Below, piece after piece: positions 4,206-4,336 of a stretch of DNA of 4,336 bases; the stretch's first letter is position 1, and each line of letters opens with the position of its first letter. Under the pieces are notes generated by a model. The model was not told the DNA's origin. It searched no databases and saw only the letters and a program-made list of their open reading frames with translations. The stretch spans positions 1-4,336 of IMG/VR virus record IMGVR_UViG_2690315922_000003; one strand, 5' to 3'. The DNA is from a virus. Lineage: Duplodnaviria > Heunggongvirae > Uroviricota > Caudoviricetes. The translations under genes were made by a program, and so were the position numbers.

Positions 4206-4336
4206 TAACTGAGCCGTAGCCACTGGCTATCATGAATTCATCAGTGATAGTTACGCTGCGGCCTTCTACACATGACCTTCGTGAAAGCGGGTGGCAAGAG
4301 GTTGCGCTAACAACCTCCTGCCGTTTTGCCCGTGCA

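Follow-up and report, generated by a model that had tools for sequence, protein, structure and literature searches.

A conserved stem-loop in the untranslated late leader between the tRNA genes and the lysis genes of a lambdoid prophage

The final 131 nt (positions 4206-4336) of the window, that is, of the whole 4,336-nt stretch of viral DNA analyzed here, are the untranslated leader of the Q-dependent late transcript, located between the tRNA-Asn and tRNA-Thr genes and the holin gene. This leader carries two structured RNA segments, a hairpin in the 3' trailer of tRNA-Thr and a stem-loop nearer to the lysis genes (Table 1). Judging by folds and pair counts in related leaders, the stem-loop is a conserved structure that travels with the leader of the lambda-family lysis cassette. 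It might insulate the lysis genes from the leader/tRNA segment by acting as a weak terminator or pause site, a tentative reading to which we assign a probability of about 0.4. A preliminary description of this DNA, which had noticed a short hairpin and expected an accessory gene just past the window edge, matters little as written: the arrangement is standard and there is no hidden accessory gene past the edge. What remains of value is a conserved, covarying stem-loop that lambda itself possesses, about 125-155 nt upstream of S and without an assigned function. The stem-loop is located where lysogens must separate tRNA expression from lethal holin expression, and is a candidate second safety barrier or processing site in the late operon.

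The late leader and the genes that follow it

The list of open reading frames and the annotated relatives identify the window as the nin/Q region of a lambdoid, P22-like (Lederbergvirus-type) prophage that encodes NinB, a phage N6-adenine methyltransferase, NinE, a DUF1364 protein, RusA and a Q21-type antiterminator. The nin region includes two further ORFs, 1869-2264 (131 aa) and 2474-2743 (89 aa); E. coli genomes cover the whole window as a mosaic (65-75%), suggesting that these two ORFs are variable segments. The 3' part of the window, positions 3900-4336, is present in 1,327 of the 5,426 complete E. coli genomes and in 155 phage records (megablast), with 97-99% identity in HF4s, Sf6, SPN9CC and BTP1, and 91% identity, up to position 4267, in phage 21.

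Table 1. Features of the late promoter, tRNA and leader region (window coordinates)
Feature	Position	Strand	Basis or remark
Q21-type antiterminator ORF (Q gene)	3469-3987	+	ORF list and annotated relatives
Late promoter pR', TTGACA-18-CATACT; overlaps the 3' end of Q	3965-3994	+	promoter scan; position agrees with the late promoter of the Sf6 and phage 21 annotations
qut region and leader terminator tR' (predicted)	4004-4048 (about)	+	homology and coordinate transfer from Sf6 (L001 3105-3149) and phage 21 annotations
tRNA-Asn (GTT)	4050-4124	+	ARAGORN; Rfam tRNA, 55.3 bits
tRNA-Thr (TGT), CCA encoded	4130-4205	+	ARAGORN; Rfam tRNA, 61.5 bits
tRNA-Thr 3' trailer hairpin, GCCGTAGC...GCTGCGGC with inner stem	4213-4262	+	RNAfold -25.5 kcal/mol, z = -3.9
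ATG-initiated open frame, 35 codons, leaving the window end; judged no gene	4232-4336	+	ORF inspection
Mosaic junctions	4267-4277	.	sequence variants; phage 21 homology stops at about 4267 (H59)
TTCGTGA, possible 5' strand of basal helix P1	4278-4284	+	partner TCACGAA about 9-15 nt past the window end; uncertain
Conserved leader stem-loop (P2-bulge-P3)	4287-4333	+	MFE folds in five leader types, pair counts, lambda homology, MG40 annotation
P2 5' strand, GCGGGT	4287-4292	+	pairs with 4328-4333
P3 5' arm, GGCAAGAGGTTG	4293-4304	+	
P3 mismatch, A.C	4297/4318	+	
Loop, CGCTAA	4305-4310	+	
P3 3' arm, CAACCTCCTGCC	4311-4322	+	
3' bulge, GTTTT	4323-4327	+	
P2 3' strand, GCCCGT	4328-4333	+	pairs with 4287-4292 and closes P3 across the bulge

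The gene order Q - tR' - tRNA-Asn - tRNA-Thr - leader - holin is already known and is standard in Sf6-, BTP1- and phage-21-like phages. In particular, Sf6, phage 21, BTP1 and phage L share the succession of Q, pR'/qut/tR', tRNA-Asn, tRNA-Thr, spacer and holin, with the differences that phage 21 departs at position 4267 into a short leader of its own, with the S21 pinholin, and that the tRNAs of phage L are Asn and Leu (PMC8022706); the presence of tRNA genes in these late leaders has been noted in the same work (PMC8022706). The preliminary description was right in reading the stretch as a non-coding leader: it belongs to the Q-dependent late operon and is located immediately downstream of Q, tR' and both tRNA genes, with pR', qut and tR' being placed by homology to Sf6 and phage 21 (Table 1).

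The region downstream of pR' is a recognized moron insertion site in lambdoid prophages, occupied, for example, by stx2 in Sp5 (PMC4104026), so that the preliminary description correctly named this late-operon position as a cargo site of related Q-type phages. The relatives, however, do not support its expectation that an accessory gene, a moron or a toxin gene, would separate the tRNAs from the lysis genes immediately beyond position 4336. The IMG/VR database was scanned with a pattern anchored on the 3' end of tRNA-Thr and blind to the downstream content, the downstream 4 kb were classified, and 118 anchored loci with at least 260 nt downstream were retained. About 62 of these loci have a lambda-type S at +242 to +247 after tRNA-Thr, and about 30 have the S21 pinholin at +117 to +120. 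About 19 loci encode a different holin, with an R21-like endolysin at +426 behind it, and three further loci have a holin pair and an endolysin from +226. None of the 118 has a gene between tRNA-Thr and the holin; all go straight to the standard lysis genes, which are reached 117-247 nt after the tRNA, an outcome that the preliminary description itself had named as evidence against cargo.

The individual relatives that come closest to the window agree with these counts. In Sf6, E. coli EC11 and Escherichia sp. E1V33, a lambda-type S is located 243 nt after tRNA-Thr, with R and Rz behind it. The last 116 nt of the window occur exactly once in IMG/VR, in locus L289, where S starts at the equivalent of window position 4448, 112 nt past the edge, and is likewise followed by R and Rz; the last 93 nt occur exactly once among the GTDB representative genomes, in Escherichia sp. 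E1V33. Both are mosaic relatives, and the other best matches are 98-99% identical; exact identity confined to the last 93-116 nt leaves cargo some room. Against it, the leader at the window end is contiguous with S in all of the roughly 180 loci that bear it, and a promoter scan, which the preliminary description had proposed, detected no sigma-70-like promoter in 4206-4336 or in the full leader of locus L004. No convergent small-RNA pair or inserted gene was found in this region of the window or in the 118 relatives. As far as relatives can refute it, the cargo hypothesis is refuted, and we regard such a gene as very improbable; past position 4336, the sequence is expected to continue as TATCGGTCACGAACAAATC... 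and to reach ATGAAGATGCC (S) at +112.

Some of the S21-type loci have holin and endolysin apart. In L103 (+333 to +1266 after tRNA-Thr), an element with an IS-type transposase lies between the two, and in L102 and L058 (+337 to +753), an ORF of 116-138 aa (MTQNYELIVKGIRNFENK...) precedes a different, 177-aa endolysin. These oddities near the holin were rejected as cargo because the IS element or extra small ORF is inside the lysis cassette and outside the tRNA-holin spacer.

The statement of the preliminary description that the final 130 nt contain no ORF is only loosely true: the frame that starts with the ATG at 4232 is open to the window end, and the program-made ORF list of the window leaves out frames that run off that end. 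The frame could encode a small protein of about 54 aa: 35 codons lie within the window without a stop, and relatives extend this to 54 codons. However, only 5 of the 118 relatives have ATG at the equivalent position, as opposed to CTG in 100; the frame is interrupted by a stop or a one-base indel in 14 of the 79 lambda-type leaders and crosses two mosaic junctions. With neither start codon nor frame conserved, the candidate was rejected, and a gene here appears extremely improbable.

Structure and conservation of the stem-loop

The hairpin of the preliminary description, AGGTTG/CGCTAA/CAACCT, is real and is located exactly at 4299-4304/4305-4310/4311-4316, but it was under-described, being the apex of the 12-bp P3 arm pair, which includes one mismatch, within a longer imperfect stem-loop. 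Taken by itself, it does not exceed chance: 17.5% of dinucleotide-shuffled versions of the 131 nt have a perfect 6-bp inverted repeat with a loop of 3-10 nt. The actual sequence has two of these repeats, a number reached in 4.7% of the shuffles. The fold of the longer segment 4285-4336, P2 included, has a predicted energy of -25.8 kcal/mol (RNAfold, z = -3.4), and the full 131 nt yield z = -4.8. An Rfam search of 3900-4336 and of the full L004 leader matched the two tRNAs and nothing else to E = 10.

A basal helix P1 (TTCGTGA/TCACGAA) might extend the structure outward. In the leader alignment, 98.4% of its cells are paired, but the strands are nearly invariant and hence uninformative; P1 competes with a downstream GAACAAATC/GATTTGTTC hairpin and is missing from the MFE fold in the tRNA-type context, so that we consider this helix uncertain. 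The competing GAACAAATC...GATTTGTTC hairpin is itself conserved and is located beyond the window edge, about 9-70 nt out (L004 2830-2888, minus strand). It is followed by a stem-loop at the ribosome-binding site of S, CCCCTTATTGGGGG versus CCTCACGGTCGTGAGG in P22, the versions of which differ by compensatory changes.

Two mosaic junctions precede the stem-loop. At 4267|4268, the continuation is either a lambda-type or an S21-type leader. The segment 4206-4267 belongs with the tRNA module and is also found in S21-type phages, in which GCGGCCTTCT runs on as TTTTTTCCCC and then into the pinholin gene. At 4276|4277, the tRNA trailer is swapped for other upstream modules, and the block that starts at 4277 (CTTCGTGA...) also sits behind these quite different modules in lambda-like and P22-like leaders. 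The trailer hairpin is common to phage 21, Sf6 and lambda and shows little variation, with compensatory changes in one divergent lineage only; the sequence 3' of it is TTCTTTTTT in S21-type phages versus TTCTACAC in the window. Several leaders without tRNAs (L127 470-500, which is P22, L128, L129, L133 and others) have AAAAGAAAA and a covarying hairpin (CCCAGC..GCTGGG, CCCGC..GCGGG) immediately 5' of the conserved block. Read from the minus strand, this arrangement has the form of a canonical terminator; the search for a leftward promoter in its vicinity gave none.

To describe the conservation of the stem-loop, 129 distinct leader sequences, including lambda, P22, ES18, g341c, HK620 and MG40, were gathered with anchors outside the hairpin and aligned (alignment A1). 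In the named structure, 93.4% of the cells are standard pairs, compared to 34-43% when the partners are slid by 1-3 columns, counts in which the structure is derived from the same 129 sequences and the sequences are related by descent. Both sides change in 8 pairs, 3 of the 6 in P2 and 5 of the 12 in P3. For example, alignment pair 25/71 is CG in 84 sequences and UA in 39, pair 40/51 is UA in 68 and CG in 41, and pair 34/56 is GC in 21, AU in 19 and UA in five. The latter pair, which corresponds to 4297/4318 in the window, is non-standard in about 65% of the sequences.

The same layout, namely an outer helix, a 3' bulge of 5-6 nt, a long inner helix and a 6-nt loop, is predicted by single-sequence folds in lambda-, P22- and HK620-type leaders, and the P2-bulge-P3 arrangement is present in ES18 as well. 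In the leaders of the L141/L269 type, single-sequence folds give this layout with unrelated stems, GGGATACTG/CAGTATCCC and GGGGATGCTG/CAGCATCCCC. The RNAalifold consensus of the 129-sequence alignment did not recover P2 and P3 and contains only a 4-bp local helix and the downstream GAACAAATC/GATTTGTTC hairpin, so that support for the named structure comes from the pair counts and the single-sequence folds. The preliminary description had listed lack of conservation among the findings that would count against it; in this respect it stands, the hairpin being kept across related leaders.

The closest well-known counterpart is that of lambda. Over a 180-nt leader query that starts at 4268, identity to lambda 45006-45185, directly 5' of S, is 98.9%. 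Lambda also has a homolog of the trailer 4206-4267 (the leader region being 44939-45185) and shares the hairpin, the bulge, the outer helix and the S holin downstream. Unlike the window, lambda has no tRNA genes between tR' and the leader, a G-C pair replaces the A.C mismatch of the window, a C.A mismatch is found near the loop, and the record NC_001416 has no annotated feature at the hairpin. Lambda thus keeps a close homolog of the tRNA-Thr trailer hairpin (L125 1140-1205, lambda 44939-45005) without tRNA genes there, ARAGORN having found none in lambda 43800-45600. Two further candidates, a degenerate third tRNA within the trailer and remnants of tRNAs in lambda, were rejected, as ARAGORN and Rfam detected none.

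Termination or processing at the stem-loop

The pR' promoter is constitutive and holin expression is lethal, a combination that favors an insulating role for the stem-loop. RNA polymerase that leaks through tR' without Q modification would then encounter the GC-rich 12-bp hairpin followed by G-UUUU, which would be a weak intrinsic terminator or a pause site for the unmodified enzyme and would leave a protective 3' end structure on the leader/tRNA precursor; Q-modified polymerase would pass the hairpin and transcribe S, R and Rz. We infer termination or pausing here, as well as any part that the element may have in forming an RNA 3' end. The 12-bp stem, with 8 G-C pairs, is GC-rich as an intrinsic terminator requires, and the short T-run after it may correspond to the U-tract of the terminators in phage late operons; in the GenBank record of phage MG40, exactly this hairpin and T-run are annotated as a terminator by the authors.

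In BTP1 lysogens, both tRNA genes are highly expressed whereas the adjoining lysis genes are low, a level that rare induced cells account for (PMC7067206). This pattern calls for a barrier in the tRNA-lysis spacer. The BTP1 match is 97% for the region and 95% for the leader. The argument is weakened in that the abundance of the tRNAs in lysogens may reflect RNA stability rather than transcription. Support for insulation also comes from the other junction type: S21-type phages have a canonical hairpin and T6 at the equivalent place, where the trailer hairpin is followed by TTCTTTTTT just before the pinholin gene, in what appears to be the same logic. Predicted terminators with unknown roles are present inside the late operons of P22-like phages (PMC8022706); full-text searches of the literature yielded nothing on the hairpin sequence or on extra terminators downstream of lambda tR'.

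Several features of the element nevertheless argue against termination. The sequence 3' of P3 is G, TTTT, GCC, that is, 4 T, which is below the terminator rule of our scan (at least 5 T in 8), and the T-run is not kept: P22-type leaders have TGATCTG or TGATTTG, HK620 has TGATTTG, and the L141 type has TAATGGTC. A T-run that is both short and not conserved speaks against a terminator, as does the location of the U-rich stretch inside a bulge closed by the covarying P2, for which a simple terminator would have no need; in these features the element differs from the intrinsic terminators of phage late operons. Lambda and P22 have no tRNAs, and in these two phages the element is located only about 150-250 nt after tR', which weighs against insulation, as do the non-standard pair at 4297/4318 in about 65% of the sequences, the wide span of predicted stabilities (-13 to -32 kcal/mol) and the failure of RNAalifold to recover P2 and P3.

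The main rival of the insulating role is RNA processing, which fits the conserved bulge, P2 and a leader fragment of P22. Under this explanation, the element would be a processing or stability signal and not a terminator, an irregular helix cut in the bulge by RNase III or another endonuclease, such that the cut would part the leader/tRNA segment from the lysis mRNA, with the upstream product ending in a 3' hairpin. For comparison, the single-cut RNase III sites of T7 have an asymmetric internal loop between two stems. The P2/3'-bulge/P3 architecture and the size of the bulge are kept even where the sequence is unrelated, and double changes affect half of the P2 pairs. Moreover, the non-Watson-Crick pairs of P2 are all G.U on the plus strand (238 of 238 cells, no A.C), as expected of a helix in plus-strand RNA. 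In P3, in contrast, all 146 non-standard cells are A.C on the plus strand, equivalent to G.U on the minus strand, which counts against processing. This asymmetry of transition mismatches led us to consider a minus-strand small RNA or terminator for P3; the candidate was rejected, as no minus-strand promoter and no minus-strand T-run were found in the window.

Compared to an RNase III helix of about 20 bp with an asymmetric loop, the element has 6 bp in P2, a 3' bulge of 5-6 nt and 12 bp in P3, often with 1-2 mismatches; P2 and P3 together thus amount to only 18 bp, with P3 often mismatched, which counts against such a substrate. In P22, the late leader from just after tR' gives rise to an abundant and stable small RNA, P22E (19716-19816, equivalent to L127 391-491), the 3' end of which is about 10-20 nt upstream of the conserved block, as processing might produce; however, the element itself is absent from the ten abundant small RNAs of P22 (PMC13397905). 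On balance, we consider processing possible, if somewhat unlikely. As to the 3' end of P22E, its distance from gene 13 is 48 nt according to the published account (PMC13397905), whereas the AF217253 coordinates give 179 nt.

Polymorphism of the stem

Among 103 unique lambda-type haplotypes (loci L005-L226), the mean diversity of the 30-nt hairpin 4293-4322 (lambda 45031-45060) is 0.073, as opposed to 0.013 for the remaining leader and 0.015 for the third codon positions of S, an approximately 5-fold excess of polymorphism in the stem over both. A set of 17 loci, identical in their 485-nt flanks, includes 10 hairpin haplotypes, and five loci that share another identical flank have five. The variation is mostly in the 5' arm, and the predicted stability of the hairpin ranges from -13.4 to -31.6 kcal/mol. 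A sequencing artefact alone is an unlikely cause because the Sanger-era genomes (lambda, Sf6, P22 and HK620) differ at the same sites. The hypervariability of the stem is a small population-genetic puzzle.

A more far-reaching possibility is that lambdoid late leaders possess a cis-regulatory RNA so far undescribed and absent from Rfam, the stem-loop 4287-4333 (lambda 45025-45071), in which the P2/3'-bulge/P3 structure would set the amount of transcription, or of stable mRNA, that reaches the lysis genes, and the fast turnover of the stem would reflect selection on lysis timing or hairpin-specific mutation. We regard this proposal as doubtful.

Polymorphism of this kind could also arise if the hairpin had no function in RNA and were a DNA quasi-palindrome carried along with the widely exchanged leader of the lysis cassette, its conservation being due to recent descent and its variation to palindrome-associated mutagenesis. 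Many phages share the leader, and likewise S, at about 99% identity, suggesting that conservation is mostly descent; the stem is a polymorphism hotspot, RNAalifold has no consensus helix there, and the inversions of the loop described below indicate events at the DNA level. Descent does not readily account, however, for hairpins of unrelated sequence with the same layout at the same place in leaders of the L141/L269 and HK620 types, or for the compensatory double changes in P2 and P3, and we consider the absence of an RNA function unlikely.

Some leaders that are otherwise alike have the loop in exactly opposite orientations, CGTCAA and TTGACG in one case and CGCTAA and TTAGCG in the other; HK620 has TTGGCG. 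The loci involved are L168, L200, L232, L234, L247 and L270 versus L227-L230, plus one other variant, and these cases point to small inversions at the inverted repeat.
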